Shown piece after piece: positions 2,939-29,153 of a stretch of 32,000 nt of DNA. This DNA comes from an uncultured bacterium (GTDB lineage: Bacteria > Babelota > Babeliae > Babelales > Babelaceae). The stretch covers positions 370,154 to 402,153 of the forward strand of contig OY970209.1 in the NCBI GenBank assembly GCA_963713855.1, given 5' to 3'. Each line of letters begins with the position of its first letter. Position 1 is the first letter of the stretch. The notes beneath the pieces are model-generated. The model worked only from the letters and a program-made list of their open reading frames with translations, made no database searches and was not told the origin of the DNA. A program made the position numbers and the translations under genes.

Positions 2939-3229
2939 ATGGCTCGTAGAGTTAAACTTAAAGTAAGTGCACGTCTTCTGCGTAAAAAAGCTCGAAGAGG
3001 CTCTTTATTTGCAGGAAAACACTGCAGATTCTGTAGCAGCGATGCTCAGGCAGCATCACTTGATTATAAGAACGCAAATTTACTCAAAAGCTTCATTACT
3101 GAGCGTTGCAAAATTTTGCCTTCACGCATATCAGGTAACTGTGCTCTGCATCAGCGCAGGCTCGCTACTGAGATTAAAAGAGCCCGCGTCATGGCATTAC
3201 TACCCTTTGCTTCACATCAAGTAGCTTAA
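2939..3229 (+). CDS. rpsR: 30S ribosomal protein S18
   Basis: CRFC...[49 protein letters not shown] is the classic S18 core. It starts 3 nt after the rpsF stop. Confidence 0.93.
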
Positions 3230-9378: not shown

Positions 9379-10185
9379 ATGAAATTAATTGTCATGAGCT
9401 TAAGCTTACTTTTTACGGTAACCGTTTATAAATCGCACGCCCAGGAAATTGACCCAAAAAAAATCATAGCTTACTGCGATGACGATGGTTGCGTACATCC
9501 ACAGGCAAATCGCCATTATTCAAACCCAAGAAAAGATAAAAACAATGGCCAAGAGCCTTATACTGCACCAATCAAGGAAAATCTTGCAAAAGCCAACCGA
9601 CTTTTTCAAGCAATGCGCGATTTTCAAGAAGTTGCAGATATCGTTAAAAACAGTCCAGCCGATCCTGAGCTAGATGCCCTACTTCAAGATGCTCCAATTG
9701 CCCCAACATTAGAGTACTTTGTATCTCTTTCTCAAACAGAAAGAGAGCTAGCCATTGACGAATTTATTAAACACGTTGAAGACGTAAAACAACACCTCGC
9801 GGCCCGTCAACAAGCAAGCGAGGCCGATATAGATGCCTTGATTAATGAGCAAAATTTCGCTCAACAATACGAGCAGTTATCTGAAAAACAAAAGTCGGAA
9901 CTTCGAGAAGGGCCTTCATGGGTAACCATTTGGTTTGAAGAAACGATAGCTTCCCTTTTTGAAATATTTCCGTCGCTTGAAGATTCTACCCTCGCTCTTG
10001 TTGAAAAGTATCCTTTCTTACTTGAATGGTATGCAAAATATTACGAATACATGTATCCTGAACCAGAAACAATAGATATTGCATACGAACCTGATATCAC
10101 TATTGAAGATGAAGAAGACATAGTGCACGTTAAATCCGATGAGACGCCATCAGAAGAAACGGCGAACAGCGATCATGAGCTCTAA
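9379..10185 (+). CDS. hypothetical secreted acidic protein ending in DHEL
   Basis: Signal peptide MKLIVMSLSLLFTVTVYKSHA|QE. The rest is Glu/Asp-rich and helical. No family recognised. Confidence 0.7.
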   Translation: MKLIVMSLSLLFTVTVYKSHAQEIDPKKIIAYCDDDGCVHPQANRHYSNPRKDKNNGQEPYTAPIKENLAKANRLFQAMRDFQEVADIVKNSPADPELDALLQDAPIAPTLEYFVSLSQTERELAIDEFIKHVEDVKQHLAARQQASEADIDALINEQNFAQQYEQLSEKQKSELREGPSWVTIWFEETIASLFEIFPSLEDSTLALVEKYPFLLEWYAKYYEYMYPEPETIDIAYEPDITIEDEEDIVHVKSDETPSEETANSDHEL

Positions 10186-24750: not shown

Positions 24751-24785
24751 TATAGTTGATAGACAGCAGTTCTGAAAGCAACACT

Positions 24786-25367
24786 ATGAACATTAACGCC
24801 TTTAAGCTCCATCTTTTAAATGAGGCATACGCTGCGTACCTACAGCTTAAAAAATGCCCTGTAGATACAAGCGGATGCACAAAACTCGTTTTTGGTGAAG
24901 GAAATCCAGATGCTAAAATTATGTTTATTGGAGAAGCACCCGGAAAGGAAGAAGATGAACAGGGTCGCCCCTTCGTGGGAAGGTCAGGCAAATTACTTAA
25001 TGCCTGCCTCAACGCTGCCAACCTCAAGCGGCAAGATGTGTTCATCTCTAATATAGTAAAATGCCGACCTCCAGAGAACCGAAAACCATTGCCCTCGGAA
25101 ATCACCTGCTATAAACCACTGCTGTTGCATGAAATCAAGATTGTTCGACCCATTGTCTTATGCACCCTCGGCAGCTCAGCCCTCGAAGCCCTCATACTAG
25201 AACCCTTTTCTATGACCAAAATTCGGGGGAAACACCTCGACTTTCTAGGAATCACCCTTATTCCCACCTTCCACCCAGCTTATGTCTTAAGAAATCAAGC
25301 CGCACTACCCGAGCTCCAGCATGATATAGACGAAGTTTCTCGCATAGCATACCAAACAAAAAAATGA
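24786..25367 (+). CDS. udg: uracil-DNA glycosylase, family 4
   Basis: C-x6-C then LVFGEGNPDAKIMFIGEAPGKEEDEQGRPFVGRSGKLL and a C-terminal HPAYVLRN. The start is uncertain: ATG at 24786 (chosen) or TTG at 24756. Confidence 0.85.
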   Translation: MNINAFKLHLLNEAYAAYLQLKKCPVDTSGCTKLVFGEGNPDAKIMFIGEAPGKEEDEQGRPFVGRSGKLLNACLNAANLKRQDVFISNIVKCRPPENRKPLPSEITCYKPLLLHEIKIVRPIVLCTLGSSALEALILEPFSMTKIRGKHLDFLGITLIPTFHPAYVLRNQAALPELQHDIDEVSRIAYQTKK

Positions 25368-25432
25368 TCATCCGCGTTTTATCTACCTCTATTTCAAACG
25401 TACATAAATTTTTTTTTGTAAAAAGTTAGGTA

Positions 25433-25474
25433 TGTGGATAAGTGGTGGATAAGTGGTGGATAAGTGGTGGACAA
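25433..25474 (-). repeat. four phased DnaA-box-like 9-mers (bottom-strand orientation)
   Basis: TGTGGATAA (25433), GGTGGATAA (25444), GGTGGATAA (25455) and GGTGGACAA (25466). The starts are exactly 11 nt apart. These are reverse complements of TTATCCAC(A/C). Confidence 0.8.
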
Positions 25475-25587
25475 AGTTTTAAGCACGTTTTGCGTAATAC
25501 GTAACACAGACACCTTTGAGCATCATCTTAAAGGATTTGTTTGATCACAAAGGAGATATAGGTGGAATAGGTTTAGGGGCTAAAAAG

Positions 25588-25618
25588 TTATCCACCACTT
25601 ATCCACCACTTATCCACC
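25588..25618 (+). repeat. three phased DnaA-box-like 9-mers (top-strand orientation)
   Basis: TTATCCACC at 25588, 25599 and 25610, with exact 11-nt spacing. The array forms an inverted repeat of about 30 nt with the 25433-25474 array, 113 bp away. Confidence 0.8.
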
Positions 25619-25666
25619 ACTTTTAATAGGGTCAAAAAGGCTTCTGGTAAAGGTTATAGCTCAAAG

Positions 25667-25675
25667 TTATCCACA
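25667..25675 (+). promoter_or_regulatory. perfect consensus DnaA box TTATCCACA
   Basis: Exact match to the E. coli-type 9-mer consensus. It lies 20 nt upstream of the AT-rich tract. Confidence 0.7.
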
Positions 25676-25695
25676 AAAATCGTCGATACAACAAC

Positions 25696-25732
25696 TATAT
25701 ATTAAATATAGATACTATGTATAAATATATAT
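25696..25732. other. AT-rich tract (candidate DNA-unwinding element)
   Basis: TATATATTAAATATAGATACTATGTATAAATATATAT: 34 of 37 nt are A/T. Confidence 0.55.
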
Positions 25733-26027
25733 GGTTGCTAATAGCACAGGCTGAAAACCTGACAGATAAACCTCTAAAAGATGGTGGTGCTTTATTGCCT
25801 TTTTCCAGTTATGAGCTATACTGGCAAAGTATGCGATAAACGTGCTTTTTGGCATGTACGGCGAAAGGCTTAAGGAGTCTACGTCGTAAAGTGTGTGCGC
25901 TGGATGCTAAGTAAACCTAACTCTCAGGCAATCTCTAAAAATAGTTTTAAGTTAGGTCAAGTGTGATATACTTGATTAGCTCATAGAGCATGAGCTGTCT
26001 CAAGTATAGGTTACCCTAAGGAAAACT

Positions 26028-27086
26028 GTGCAATTATCACAGGTTATTGAAGAACTCGTCGAAGAAAAAGGTCTTGATCGCACCCTTCTCACGGACATTG
26101 TATGTGAAGGCATTTTGAGCGCCTATCTAAAAAAATACCCTACGGCAAAGCTGACTGTTTCCTACAATAGAAAGAGCGATGAGCTGGCTATTAATGCTGA
26201 AAAGAAAGTTGTGCAAACTGTTGTAGATGATCTGTTGGAGATAAGTTTAAGAAAAGCAAAAACATTTAACGAGAGTTCTCAACTGGGCGATGTCATACAG
26301 GTTCCCTTCCAAGAAAGTATCGGGCGAATCGAGATTTTAAGAGCTAAACAGATTATTGCCCAAAAGATCAAAGATGTTGAAGCAGAAATAATTTACAATC
26401 AGTTTAAGGACAAGCTTAATACCATCGTCCACGGTATCGTGCACAAGGCTGAAAGAGCTGGTGTGACGGTCAAGCTTAATGACGCCTTAGCATTTTTGCC
26501 AAAATCTCTCATGATACCGGGAGAAGAATGTTTGGTTGGGCACACGGTAAAAGCGCTTTTAAAAGAGGTTCTTGAAGAGCCAAGAAATGAAAATCAACTT
26601 ATTTTAGATCGCGTGTCTCCTCTTTTTGTGGCTAAATTGTTTGAACTCGAGATTCCAGAGGTCTTTGAGAAAATAGTAGAGATTAAAAAAATCGTAAGAA
26701 TCCCGGGATATAAATCGAAAATAGCCGTCATCTCCCACGACGAGAATATTGACCCGGTAGGTACATGTATCGGTGTTGGCGGAGCAAGAATCAAGCCTAT
26801 TTTACGCGAACTTAAGACTGAAAAAATTGATGTTATTAGATTTAGCAACTCTTTAGAAGAGCTTATTCGTGATGCTCTTAAGCCGGCAGTGGTAAATCGC
26901 ATACAAATTATCGATAATCAAAATGCTCAGGTGTGGCTTGATGATGACCAGAGGTCACTGGCCATTGGCAAATCAGGCCAAAATATAATACTTGCTTCAC
27001 AGCTTGTAGGGCTGACGATCCATTTAGTAAAAAATGAGCCGTCTACAGCGCTTGGCGAGCATTTAGAAGCAGAGCCTCAGGACTAA
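26028..27086 (+). CDS. nusA: transcription termination/antitermination factor NusA
   Basis: The N-terminal domain (L-x-VIEELVEEKGLDRTLL...AY), an S1-like segment and two KH segments (VGTCIGVGGARIKPI and LAIGKSGQNIILAS) are present. GTG start with AAGGA 5 nt upstream. It is followed by infB. Confidence 0.9.
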   Translation: MQLSQVIEELVEEKGLDRTLLTDIVCEGILSAYLKKYPTAKLTVSYNRKSDELAINAEKKVVQTVVDDLLEISLRKAKTFNESSQLGDVIQVPFQESIGRIEILRAKQIIAQKIKDVEAEIIYNQFKDKLNTIVHGIVHKAERAGVTVKLNDALAFLPKSLMIPGEECLVGHTVKALLKEVLEEPRNENQLILDRVSPLFVAKLFELEIPEVFEKIVEIKKIVRIPGYKSKIAVISHDENIDPVGTCIGVGGARIKPILRELKTEKIDVIRFSNSLEELIRDALKPAVVNRIQIIDNQNAQVWLDDDQRSLAIGKSGQNIILASQLVGLTIHLVKNEPSTALGEHLEAEPQD

Positions 27087-27113: not shown

Positions 27114-29153
27114 ATGAGAGTTTACGAATTTGCCAAAAAATACAATCTCAGCAACAAGGATATACTGGTCTTTTTGCAAGAGAATGGATTTAAGATCCAA
27201 AGTCACATGGCAATGGTTCCGGCAGCAGCGCTAGAGCTTCTGACAAAAAAGTATGCTAAAGTCGAGGTTGCTTCCCCTACACCAAAACCTGCCAAAGCTC
27301 AAATTATCGAACAAAAACCGCCAAAAGAAGAAAAAAAACCAACTCCTCCTGCCCCACCAGTACCGCCTCAACCGACATTCAAACAACCGGCTAAGCCTCC
27401 GGCTAAAGAGATGCCGGCTAAGCAGGTAGCGCAACCCGAACCTATCGTTCAACCCGCAGCACCTGAAGGTATTCATCTGGAGCCAATGACGGTCAGTGAT
27501 TTTGCTATGCGAGCAAAAAAGCCCGTTGGTGACGTTATTCTTAACCTTTTGCGGCAGGGAACTGTGGCGGTAAAAAATCAAGTTATCAATGAAAAAGTGG
27601 TTGCACAGCTTGCGCGTTTTTATGGTCTTAAAATACTTGAAGAAGTGCAAAAAGTATCTCCAGCAGCACCTAAAAAAGATGTTGAAGGTGCTACTGAGGA
27701 AAGGTTGCCTGTTGTTGTCGTCATTGGACATGTCGATCATGGAAAAACAACCCTTCTCGATTTTATCAGAAAAACCCGTGTGGCAGCTAAAGAAAAGGGT
27801 GGGATTACTCAGCATTTGGGGGCATACGAGGCACATACTAAACAAGGTGATCTTGTCTTTTTGGATACTCCGGGTCACGCAGCTTTTACTAAAATGAGAG
27901 AAAGAGGCACACGCGTTGCCGATATTGCTGTCCTTGTTGTTGCCGCTGATGATGGTGTGATGCCACAAACTACGGAGGCTATTAAACAAGCTCAAGCTGC
28001 TAACATACCTTTAGTTGTTGCAATTAATAAGGTTGATAAAGCTTCGGCTGGGCAAATTGAAGCGGTAAAGCGTTCGTTAACTCAGTATGGACTTGTTCCT
28101 GAAGAATGGGGTGGTCCAACCATTTTTATGCCGATTTCCGCTAAATTTGGCACTGGAGTTGAAGAACTTCTTGATGTGCTCGTTTTGCAGTCAAAAGTTA
28201 TGGAGCTTACTGCGGCGCTTTTTGTACCGGCAAGGGGCTTCGTTCTTGAAGCAAAGCAAGAGAAAGGGCGTGGATCAGTTGCAACTGTCATTAATCAGCA
28301 TGGCATTTTGAAGGTGGGTGATACCTTCGTCACGAGCGCCGGAGTGACTGGTAAAGTTACGTCTTTAATCGATTCGTCAGGTAAACGTGTCAGGCAGGCA
28401 CACCCTTCTCAGCCCGTACAAGTTGCTGGTTTTGAAAGTTTGCCTCAGGCAGGTGACACGTTTGAAGTCGTTATGCCTGGCGAGATGAAGAAAATTAAGC
28501 AAGCAAGTCAAGGCCGCGTTTTGCACGTTACACGTCTGTCCCAAGATCATGGCATAAACGTTGTACTTAAGGTGGATAATGATTCTTCTCGAGAAGCTCT
28601 TTTAGGCGCCATTGAAAAGTTAAACGACAAGGCCTACCAAAAGATTAATGTCATCGCTGTTGGTATAGGTGCTATTTCTGAGAGTGACATTCAGCTTGCT
28701 GATGATACTCGTTCGACTGTTTATGGCTTTCATACCAAGGCCGACCCTTCTGCATTGGCTCTAGCTACAAAAACCGGCGTAATTATACATCAGTTCGATA
28801 TAATTTATCGCTTATTAGAGCATTTGGAGGCAATCACTAACGCTGGAAAACCTGTTAAAAAGATCGCAAAAAAGACGGGTGAGGCGATCATACTTAAGGT
28901 ATTTGATATCAAAAATATCGGTAAGGTCGCGGGTGGTCAGGTTAAATCTGGCAAGATTGTGAAAGATGGCAAGGTAACGGTATGGCGCTCAAAACATAAA
29001 GTTGGTGAAGGCACGATTAAAAGTTTACAGCGTGAGAAAAAGACCATAAAAGAGGCTCTTACGGGAATGGAATTTGCGTTTATGGTTGACGGATTTGATG
29101 ATTGGGTACCAGAAGACAGAGTTGAATGTTACCAAGAGGTACCTGAAGCTTAA
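27114..29153 (+). CDS. infB: translation initiation factor IF-2
   Basis: Pro/Lys-rich linker, then [21 protein letters not shown] and NKVD. The C-terminal domains and the position after nusA fit IF-2. Confidence 0.95.
   Translation: MRVYEFAKKYNLSNKDILVFLQENGFKIQSHMAMVPAAALELLTKKYAKVEVASPTPKPAKAQIIEQKPPKEEKKPTPPAPPVPPQPTFKQPAKPPAKEMPAKQVAQPEPIVQPAAPEGIHLEPMTVSDFAMRAKKPVGDVILNLLRQGTVAVKNQVINEKVVAQLARFYGLKILEEVQKVSPAAPKKDVEGATEERLPVVVVIGHVDHGKTTLLDFIRKTRVAAKEKGGITQHLGAYEAHTKQGDLVFLDTPGHAAFTKMRERGTRVADIAVLVVAADDGVMPQTTEAIKQAQAANIPLVVAINKVDKASAGQIEAVKRSLTQYGLVPEEWGGPTIFMPISAKFGTGVEELLDVLVLQSKVMELTAALFVPARGFVLEAKQEKGRGSVATVINQHGILKVGDTFVTSAGVTGKVTSLIDSSGKRVRQAHPSQPVQVAGFESLPQAGDTFEVVMPGEMKKIKQASQGRVLHVTRLSQDHGINVVLKVDNDSSREALLGAIEKLNDKAYQKINVIAVGIGAISESDIQLADDTRSTVYGFHTKADPSALALATKTGVIIHQFDIIYRLLEHLEAITNAGKPVKKIAKKTGEAIILKVFDIKNIGKVAGGQVKSGKIVKDGKVTVWRSKHKVGEGTIKSLQREKKTIKEALTGMEFAFMVDGFDDWVPEDRVECYQEVPEA

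Follow-up and report, generated by a model that had tools for sequence, protein, structure and literature searches.

A probable DnaA-dependent chromosomal origin between udg and nusA in a bacterium of the Dependentiae

Described origins and the udg-nusA gap

In E. coli oriC the left DnaA-oligomerization region (DOR) faces the DNA unwinding element (DUE) and the right DOR is opposed to it (PMC10380432), with DOR sites 2 bp apart (PMC6070618). Read in the flipped direction, this origin presents the order R4(-), R2(-), R5M(+), R1(+), a 13-bp spacer and the DUE, R5M and R1 being 55 bp apart from start to start and separated by a gap of 46 bp. The basal unwinding system (BUS) of origins of the Bacillus subtilis type is defined by a DnaA box with two mismatches at most, located no more than 16 bp from a run of three or more DnaA-trios (3'-NAN-5') on a strand running 3'-to-5' away from the box, and its commonest spacer is 13 bp (Pelliciari et al. 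2021, PMC8287927). Two further layouts relevant here are those of DARS, formed by head-to-head boxes I and II, and of datA, formed by an IHF site and boxes 2, 3 and 7 (PMC10380432). As for the Dependentiae (TM6) themselves, whose published genomes are reported to encode DnaA, the only origin descriptions found in the literature were statements on Babela and Chromulinavorax. The origin of the isolate Chromulinavorax destructans was predicted at 651641-652233, a region of 593 bp, from GC skew and TTATCCACA boxes, in a paper that does not say which genes flank the region or how its boxes are arranged (PMC6561590) and one of whose supplementary files makes no mention of nusA, dnaA or infB. For Babela massiliensis, GC skew led to an origin placed upstream of dnaA, at a distance of 152 nt (PMC4378268).

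The element described here belongs to an uncultured Dependentiae genome and was analysed within a window of 32 kb (the whole stretch of DNA under study). It lies between udg, a gene of the uracil-DNA glycosylase family on the + strand (24756-25367, Pfam UDG 1.4e-36), and nusA (26028-27086, + strand, GTG start, Pfam NusA_N and KH_5), which is followed by infB (27114-29153). The intervening 660 bp (25368-26027), reported as the largest ORF-free gap by an initial annotation of this DNA, indeed form the largest internal gap between open reading frames of at least 120 amino acids. Neither a tRNA nor a tmRNA was found in the window, and no Rfam family reached the gathering threshold there, so that a known RNA gene does not explain the gap. 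We regard the 300-bp element within it as very probably the DnaA-dependent chromosomal oriC of this bacterium of the Babeliales, located between udg and nusA and not linked to dnaA. It is an element of a known kind, well formed and conserved across its group, with an E. coli-like layout. The C. destructans origin can be compared with it by description only, and on that basis the two share the phylum, the presence of TTATCCACA boxes and a similar setting in terms of length, a 593-bp region against a 660-bp gap.

Box arrays, spacers and the unwinding module

Two opposed arrays of DnaA boxes are found in the gap. The left array (25433-25474, - strand) consists of four bottom-strand boxes at an 11-bp pitch, TGTGGATAA, GGTGGATAA, GGTGGATAA and GGTGGACAA, corresponding to a perfect TTATCCACA at 25433(-), boxes with a single mismatch at 25444(-) and 25455(-), and a fourth box at 25466 with two mismatches. 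The right array (25588-25618, + strand) is composed of three top-strand TTATCCACC boxes, each with one mismatch, at 25588(+), 25599(+) and 25610(+), again at an 11-bp pitch. Its boxes point toward the DUE and are oriented as the lone perfect TTATCCACA box (25667-25675, + strand) that lies proximal to the DUE. Tandem Repeats Finder describes both arrays at 100% match, as 3.5 copies of an 11-bp unit (25434-25471) and 3.2 copies of TTATCCACCAC (25588-25622). Pairing between the inverted arms extends along 42 nt at 93% (25440-25481 and 25581-25622), or along 30 nt if a match of 100% is asked for, and the arms enclose a spacer of 113 bp (25475-25587); a second, A-tract-rich spacer of 48 bp (25619-25666) leads from the right array to the lone box. 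The initial annotation had described the 11-bp spacing within each arm, the inverted arms of about 30 nt set 113 bp apart, the consensus box at 25667-25675 and a 37-nt tract with 3 G/C, and its coordinates and sequences proved right to the base. Twelve boxes with at most one mismatch occur in the whole 32 kb, against 6.9 expected from shuffles counting both strands, and seven of these twelve are packed into 243 bp; set against 6.9 expected per 32 kb, this density rules out a chance origin of the cluster.

Several features are held in common with E. coli oriC. Neither origin adjoins dnaA, each contains two opposed arrays of about four sites in which the 2-bp separation amounts to an 11-bp pitch, and in each the DUE-proximal array is oriented as the DUE-proximal box while the distal array is opposed. 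The polarity of the proximal box toward the DUE is also the same, with a 13-bp spacer in both. By analogy, the left array would correspond to the right DOR of E. coli (C3/C2/I3/C1/R4) and the right array to its left-DOR array R5M-tau2-I1-I2, whereas the lone box at 25667 could be equated with R1 and with the BUS box. The 48-bp A-tract spacer would then sit where E. coli has its IHF/HU bending site between R5M and R1, the R5M-R1 gap of 46 bp comparing with 46-49 or 57-60 bp in Dependentiae loci. The two systems also differ in some respects. The E. coli arrays are made of cryptic low-affinity sites, whereas those of Dependentiae are nearly all consensus or one mismatch away from it; no central counterpart of R2 was identified, an unconserved spacer of ~100-113 bp standing in its place; and the 13-mer repeats and GATC clustering of E. 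coli were not seen in the Dependentiae element. Moreover, where E. coli has TT[A/G]T(T) motifs, TAA/TAG trios of the B. subtilis type stand beside the Dependentiae spacer, and the element is flanked by udg and nusA, the E. coli origin by mnmG and mioC. Since orientation, 2-bp separation and the 13-bp box-to-DUE spacer are those of E. coli, and the trios of relatives those of the BUS, the geometry is canonical, and the head-to-tail, inverted-arm arrangement that had initially been called unusual follows the same logic as oriC. A geometry specific to Dependentiae was considered and rejected, as at least 120 stretches of metagenome sequence, varying widely in GC content, contain three boxes at an 11-bp pitch. 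With 11-bp DnaA-box arrays present in other, possibly non-origin, contexts, the arrays alone are not diagnostic.

Conservation of the whole arrangement was assessed in Dependentiae nusA loci, for which at most 21 kb of sequence per locus was available beside the 32 kb of the window. In about 20 of 24 long loci, from relatives whose NusA is 54-77% identical, seven to ten boxes with this layout precede nusA by 170-600 bp. In other phyla, 34 nusA loci were examined, and all of them have three boxes at most. The shared order is left array, spacer, right array, spacer, lone box, 13-bp spacer, CTA/TTA repeats and AT-rich tract; the element is located, for example, near 38.6-38.8 kb of OY969622.1, near 1,043.9-1,044.2 kb of OY969927.1 and, as a predicted origin, near 597.1-597.3 kb of CAVRKK010000002.1. 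The gene context is similarly maintained: of 26 Dependentiae loci with enough upstream sequence, 24 have udg at a distance of 444-825 bp before nusA, and the nusA-infB order is found in all loci reaching beyond nusA. The left array, kept as three to five boxes in about 20 relatives, is 93-95% identical to its homologs, compared with 33-41% for the adjoining spacer, and boxes in general are 88-100% identical to those of close relatives against 33-57% for spacers. As judged from these sequences, the arrays are under selection relative to their spacers. In one locus (L029) a variant box, TTTTCAACC, occupies every position of the architecture, implying that a single protein reads all sites. A search for NusA homologs returned no Babela or Chromulinavorax protein among the best 120 matches. 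The dnaA-adjacent placement published for Babela is at odds with the nusA-linked element observed in the Babeliaceae loci L012 and L015.

Spacers are constrained in length but not in sequence. The 113-bp inter-arm spacer aligns without gaps to that of a close relative (L065, NusA 94%) at 41% identity, and in 20 loci its length falls into classes of 98-102, 110-114 and 123 bp. The spacer between right array and lone box measures 46-49 bp in six of 20 loci and 57-60 bp in the other 14, a difference of one helical turn; the last right-arm box precedes the lone box by 55-58 or 66-69 bp. Of the pitches within arrays, 80 are of 11 bp and 15 of 12 bp. A k-mer search for conserved motifs in the spacers detected A-tract enrichment only, AAAAAA occurring in 11 of 20 spacers between right array and lone box, against a shuffle maximum of 8.

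Beyond the lone box lies the unwinding module. Of 25 aligned loci, 23 have the lone box in the corresponding position, with a conserved AG directly before it, and the box is 100% identical in L065 and L068. It is followed by a 13-bp spacer, AAAATCGTCGATA (25676-25688), in which an A-run gives way to a G+C-rich cluster, a composition that recurs across loci (10% GC on average in the first four nucleotides, 57% in the next nine). The DUE (25693-25732) begins 17 bp past the lone box and has the lowest duplex stability in the 32 kb, its 40-mer having a dG of -35.0 as compared with a window mean of -51.7 (sd 3.7). The 37-nt AT tract (25696-25732) lies inside this 40-mer, and the equivalent 40 nt average 16% GC over 23 loci. 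Between spacer and DUE, and overlapping the latter, the position of the DnaA-trios (25689-25697, - strand) reads CAA CAA CTA on the top strand, continuing with TAT in the register set by the 13-bp spacer, so that the third triplet alone is a canonical trio (bottom strand 3'-GAT-5').

This module resembles the BUS. With its perfect box at 25667-25675 and 13-bp spacer, the window has the box component of the BUS rule, and in relatives the likeness extends to a 13-14-bp spacer ending in a GC-rich segment, three or four CTA/TTA triplets and an AT-rich tract. The CTA/TTA of the top strand correspond to 3'-GAT-5' or 3'-AAT-5' on the bottom strand, which runs 3'-to-5' away from the box as in published 5'-tail scaffolds. 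In relatives (C/T)TA is repeated three to four times at the trio position, and at least three perfect trios at the 13-14-bp register are present in 16 of 25 loci. In the window's own species the run is degenerate and falls short of the strict three-trio rule, two of the three trios being CAA, with the wrong middle base. Other differences from the B. subtilis type are a single proximal box in place of the tandem pair and the lack of a bipartite arrangement around dnaA. Beyond the AT tract, a mirrored TAATAATAG is present in many relatives, a feature outside the BUS definition. A symmetric double-BUS was considered and dropped as a general feature, since a mirrored box beyond the DUE occurs in one of 25 loci (L013).

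Strand asymmetry and rival explanations

GC skew changes sign at the element in all of 23 Dependentiae loci, from a mean over loci of -0.092 in the 9 kb to its left to +0.111 in the 9 kb to its right, as against no switch in control loci from other phyla (n = 15). For 20 of the 23 loci the cumulative-skew minimum maps to the interval from -630 to +126 relative to the start of nusA. Within the 32 kb of the window the minimum is at 25399, i.e., at the gap, the place at which the initial annotation had proposed to look for it on the full replicon. Because these stretches cover 32 kb of the window and 21 kb per relative, the switch is a local result. Gene-orientation bias was examined as its source and rejected: the sign of the skew is the same for genes on either strand, and the + strand genes on the left side are still negative, so that gene orientation is not the cause. 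On that side 59% of coding bases (pooled loci) are on the + strand, not co-oriented with a leftward fork, which tells against the origin reading. A search for dnaA by DnaA-signature regular expression and by tblastn with E. coli DnaA, a probe validated against Pfam, found none in the window or in 68 loci, nor was any dnaA detected within 10 kb of the element in the window or any relative locus. An origin unlinked to dnaA, as had been suggested from the 32 kb alone, is supported by this result together with the conservation, the skew switch and the unwinding module.

None of the alternatives raised along with that suggestion (datA-like or DARS-like sites, promoter control, foreign iterons) is favoured by these data. 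The element could in principle be a DnaA-regulatory locus, either datA-like, DARS-like or an operator of the nusA-infB promoter, with the origin elsewhere, e.g., by dnaA. The cluster is situated directly upstream of the nusA promoter region, any dnaA of this genome would lie outside the window, the Babela origin has been published as dnaA-adjacent (PMC4378268), and datA and DARS are known examples of DnaA-box clusters that are not origins (PMC10380432), which in E. coli (datA, DARS1/2) are likewise distant from dnaA. However, a regulatory site would not produce a skew switch, and the origin-polarity switch at the element in 23/23 genomes counts against this reading, which we consider improbable. 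The attached module of box, 13-bp spacer, trios and AT-rich unwinding tract also counts against it. Unlike the Dependentiae element, datA and DARS have no DUE and are not located at a skew switch; DARS is a head-to-head pair, in contrast to head-to-tail boxes with arms 113 bp apart, and neither the DARS nor the datA layout was found here. By their definitions the element is thus neither a datA nor a DARS locus, and with a DnaA-consensus core and no Rep-like family among the 20 larger open reading frames compared with Pfam it does not fit a plasmid-type iteron origin either. A dual role as origin and in promoter control is possible, and is no rival to the origin reading.

Housekeeping neighbours (udg, comEC-like, nusA, infB) and a repeat core that is an exact DnaA consensus make it very improbable that the arrays represent iterons, or a replication origin, belonging to a plasmid, a phage or another mobile element that has integrated, and are recognised by a non-DnaA protein of the Rep type. 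Short tandem direct repeats with inverted arms and an adjoining AT-rich tract would fit an iteron origin as well, and long 11-bp DnaA-box arrays do occur in unrelated GC-rich contigs (L112). Nevertheless, no rep, integrase or partition gene was found among the 20 larger open reading frames of the window compared with Pfam, and neither a linked Rep-family gene nor a patchy presence among close relatives was seen; synteny of the locus extends through a phylum-level group, and the strand asymmetry of the chromosome switches there. Hardly credible, finally, is the view of the element as a functionless assembly artefact or dispersed repeat. The right arm is where a short-read Logan contig from this organism (L001) ends, 435 bp upstream of nusA, showing that the repeats do disturb assembly, but the element was recovered in independent long-read and short-read assemblies, and compared with its spacers it is under selection. 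The array is present once in the 32-kb window, and the densest box cluster of each 21-kb relative locus is at this same site upstream of nusA, a conservation at one syntenic position that refutes the artefact and leaves no room for the dispersed repeat against which the initial annotation had cautioned.

Proposed mechanism and uses of the probable origin

If the element is the origin, it is placed, in this uncultured Dependentiae genome and, by conservation, probably in most Babeliales, between udg and nusA and not beside dnaA. Such a placement can be used for rotating and checking MAG assemblies, for peak-to-trough estimates of growth rate and in origin databases. Alignment across the phylum separates what is fixed, namely the orientation of boxes, their 11-bp pitch, the 13 bp between box and trios and spacer lengths in steps of helical turns, from what is free, the sequence of the spacers. 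No new principle of replication is involved.

In mechanistic terms, DnaA bound at the lone box (25667) and the right array (25588-25618) may form a head-to-tail oligomer facing the DUE, while a second, opposed oligomer would assemble on the left array (25433-25474) with its four boxes, mirroring the left and right DORs of E. coli. The A-tract-rich spacers, varying by about one helical turn, would hold all boxes to the same side of the helix and leave room for bending or looping. From the lone box DnaA is predicted to extend over the 13-bp spacer onto the DnaA-trios of the bottom strand, and this engagement could open the AT-rich tract (25693-25732), where the helicase would be loaded. Transcription of nusA-infB, directed away from the DUE, may assist in opening. 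A promoter-like TTGCCT-16-TATACT (25795-25822, + strand), identified by consensus scan and pointing in this direction, is probably the nusA-infB promoter; its sequence is kept in L065, and TACACT/TAGACT-like motifs precede nusA in other loci.

A more elaborate reading, which we advance tentatively, joins two filaments in one origin. Opposed consensus arrays following the logic of E. coli would act together with a trio module following that of B. subtilis, on an 11-bp lattice maintained throughout by spacers that shift by whole helical turns. The origin would have moved from dnaA to the udg-nusA interval no later than the base of the group, the boxes of L029 would have been rewritten in concert (to TTTTCAACC), and those of L006, L008 and L009 would have decayed to low affinity. 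If true, this reading would offer an unusually clean comparative system for the cooperation between opposed DnaA oligomers and trios, and would be informative also on the means by which helical phasing is maintained and on co-evolution between DnaA and its boxes. With regard to the trio position itself, the variant CAACAACTA is common to the window and L065.

Box arrays and AT-rich tract of the udg–nusA gap

On sequence grounds, the DnaA-box arrays and adjoining AT-rich tract between udg and nusA very probably form the chromosomal replication origin (oriC) of this Dependentiae bacterium, without linkage to dnaA. The gap (25368–26027), flanked by a UDG-family gene on one side and nusA-infB on the other, is the largest internal one between ORFs of at least 120 aa in the window, as the initial annotation had stated, and its description of the repeats, inverted arms, boxes and AT tract proved exact on re-reading. 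Tandem Repeats Finder delineated 3.5 perfect copies of an 11-bp unit in the left array (25434–25471) and 3.2 perfect copies of the unit TTATCCACCAC in the right array (25588–25622). Perfect TTATCCACA boxes are located at 25433 on the minus strand and at 25667 on the plus strand, the latter being the lone box between the right array and the AT tract; the fourth left box (GGTGGACAA, 25466) carries two mismatches, and the remaining five array boxes one each. The arms, 113 bp apart, are mutually inverted, with 93% pairing along 42 nt or 100% along a 30-nt stretch. Allowing up to one mismatch, the 32-kb window contains 12 DnaA boxes against 6.9 expected, seven of them packed into 243 bp, and the AT tract is its least stable 40-mer duplex (dG −35.0; window mean −51.7, sd 3.7). 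Searches of the window detected no tRNA, no Rfam family and, as previously noted, no dnaA.

Conserved layout and strand asymmetry upstream of nusA

Relatives of the window's NusA belong to the Dependentiae (TM6; order Babeliales), with a best match of 77% identity in the GTDB species set and a 94% relative in Logan assemblies. The comparison drew on 21-kb nusA loci of about 28 Dependentiae genomes, with 34 nusA loci from other phyla serving as controls. DnaA boxes are most densely clustered (7–10 boxes per 400 bp) 170–600 bp upstream of nusA in approximately 20 of 24 long Dependentiae loci, and the control loci (n = 34) never exceeded three boxes. The common order is a left array of 3–5 bottom-strand boxes, a spacer, a right array of 3–5 top-strand boxes, a second spacer, the lone top-strand box, the AT-rich tract and nusA. 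Neighbouring boxes of an array are set at a pitch of 11 bp (80 cases) or 12 bp (15 cases), while the inter-arm spacer measures 98–102, 110–114 or 123 bp and that between right array and lone box 46–49 or 57–60 bp, length classes roughly one helical turn apart in spacers whose sequence is unconserved. Specifically, between the window and its closest relative (L065) the boxes are 88–100% identical, and the inter-arm spacer is 41% identical at exactly equal length. Such retention of boxes around a spacer diverged at fixed length is the signature of selection acting on boxes and helical phasing rather than on the sequence of the spacer.

Among 26 loci that extend far enough upstream, 24 keep the order udg, gap, nusA, infB. 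Two Babeliaceae loci (L012 and L015) are without udg upstream of the left array, their box architecture intact, so that this family has undergone a rearrangement at the left edge of the origin region. The rearrangement may be relevant to the origin published for Babela massiliensis, which GC skew placed next to dnaA, 152 nt upstream of it (PMC4378268), in conflict with the udg–nusA location. For Chromulinavorax destructans an origin was predicted at 651641–652233 from GC skew and TTATCCACA boxes, its neighbours unnamed (PMC6561590). In the literature searched, neither an origin at udg–nusA nor a two-arm architecture was described.

Within the window the cumulative GC-skew minimum falls at 25399, and in 20 of 23 Dependentiae loci the local minimum is confined to −630 to +126 relative to the start of nusA (median −93). 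All 23 loci have negative skew in the 9 kb on the left side of the element (mean −0.092) and positive skew in the 9 kb on its right side (mean +0.111), a polarity befitting an origin and not a terminus; control nusA loci from other phyla (n = 15) showed positive skew on both sides. Gene orientation was ruled out as the source of this switch, since the sign holds for plus-strand genes on the left (−0.082, negative in 23/23 loci) and for minus-strand genes on the right (+0.044). Pooled over the 23 loci, 59% of coding bases in the left 10 kb are on the plus strand, with no preferred co-orientation with the leftward fork, and 82% on the right side are co-oriented; transcription of the udg, comEC-like and pgsA-like genes beside the origin would be head-on to replication. 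The earlier suggestion of an origin without dnaA linkage draws support from the conserved layout, the predicted unwinding module and the local skew switch in 23/23 loci. The element is a tidy example of phylum-wide conservation rather than a surprise.

Predicted unwinding module and comparison with E. coli oriC

Alignment of 23 loci on the lone box gave a consensus of AG-TTATCCAC(A/C), AAAA, ~9 nt at 57% GC, three to four (C/T)TA repeats and ~40 nt at 16% GC. Top-strand CTA and TTA correspond to 3'-GAT-5' and 3'-AAT-5' on the bottom strand, whose 3'-to-5' direction leads away from the box. Judged from its sequence, the (C/T)TA run in relatives represents the DnaA-trios of the basal unwinding system (BUS). 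The box-to-trio spacer is 13 bp, reported as the most common length in BUS (PMC8287927). At least three perfect trios occur at this register in 16 of 25 loci; the run is degenerate in the window (CAA CAA CTA) and in L065, so that for this species the trio signature is only partial.

The anatomy of the element and the homology of its layout suggest a mechanism in which mutually opposed, head-to-tail DnaA oligomers would form on the two arrays, DnaA would spread from the lone box across the 13-bp spacer to the bottom-strand trios, and the AT tract would then open, possibly aided by nusA transcription.

The geometry, initially considered unusual, is instead canonical when set against E. coli oriC (the oriC sequence used aligned with 5404 E. 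coli genomes along 80% or more of its length, best 100%). Flipped to place the DNA unwinding element (DUE) on the right, the latter reads R4(−), R2(−), R5M(+), R1(+), a 13-bp G+C-rich spacer, CTAATAAGAGATC and the remaining DUE, with 55 bp from R5M start to R1 start. Its low-affinity sites are arranged as two groups of four with 2-bp separations (PMC6070618). The boxes of the left DnaA-oligomerization region share one orientation, and two DnaA pentamers oppose one another, R1 and R5M flanking a bending site for IHF/HU (PMC10380432). Orientation logic, pitch, the 13-bp spacer and a similar gap between proximal box and array are shared, whereas the Dependentiae arrays are written in consensus boxes.

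Several further features surround the module. Many relatives carry a mirrored TAATAATAG past the AT tract, which is often bracketed by an inverted trio repeat, CTATTATTA ... TAATAATAG (e.g., L013:9873–9903, and loci L012, L016 and L023). In L013, alone among 25 loci, a perfect box facing inward lies exactly 13 bp beyond the mirrored trios, which makes the module symmetric and double. Just downstream of the AT tract, CA..CTGAAAA (25745–25757) is invariant in the window, L065 and two other fetched loci (L068, L002), with a one-base variant, CTGAAAC, in L004; the motif is not box-like and its flanks have diverged. The nusA leader of the window (~25900–26010) is 81–116 nt longer than in the closest relatives, the extra stretch including a hairpin at 25978–25996 with a perfect 7-bp stem (AGCTCAT-agagc-ATGAGCT), and GTG is the apparent start of every Dependentiae nusA examined.

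Altered boxes and arrays beyond Dependentiae

A divergent Dependentiae lineage (L029) preserves the layout (L029:2500–2830, nusA at 3101) with every box reading TTTTCAACC / GGTTGAAAA in place of TTATCCACA, in four left repeats at 11-bp pitch, in the right arm, in the lone box preceding TTATTATTATTA, and in a mirrored box past the AT tract. This concerted replacement implies that a single protein would read all sites, and suggests that DnaA-box specificity changed in concert. Layout, 11-bp lattice, GC-skew switch and a lone box followed by trios all persist in three other loci (L006, L008 and L009), in which the arrays consist of degenerate boxes (e.g., GGTGAATAA, GGTGAATGA, TGGGGATAG, GGTGTATAA; 400 bp upstream of nusA, locus positions ~9600–10000) and resemble the low-affinity arrays of E. 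coli.

Box arrays at 11-bp pitch are common in metagenomes, where at least 120 stretches with three or more TTATCCAC boxes were found. Among 80 of these that were fetched, 12 are Dependentiae nusA-linked two-arm origins and three adjoin dnaA, the rest spanning 26–67% GC. One metagenome contig at 62% GC (L112:5289–5561) bears 25 consecutive (A/G)GTGGATAAAT units, which are DnaA boxes at 11-bp pitch, in an intergenic gap directly upstream of an ORF, and L143 has 10 units of this type; such arrays could titrate DnaA or serve as origins for other replicons. One short-read contig from the organism of the window (L001, Logan ERR11571144) begins at window position 25593, inside the right arm; de Bruijn assemblies break at the inverted 11-bp arrays, and such origins would often lie at contig ends in short-read MAGs.
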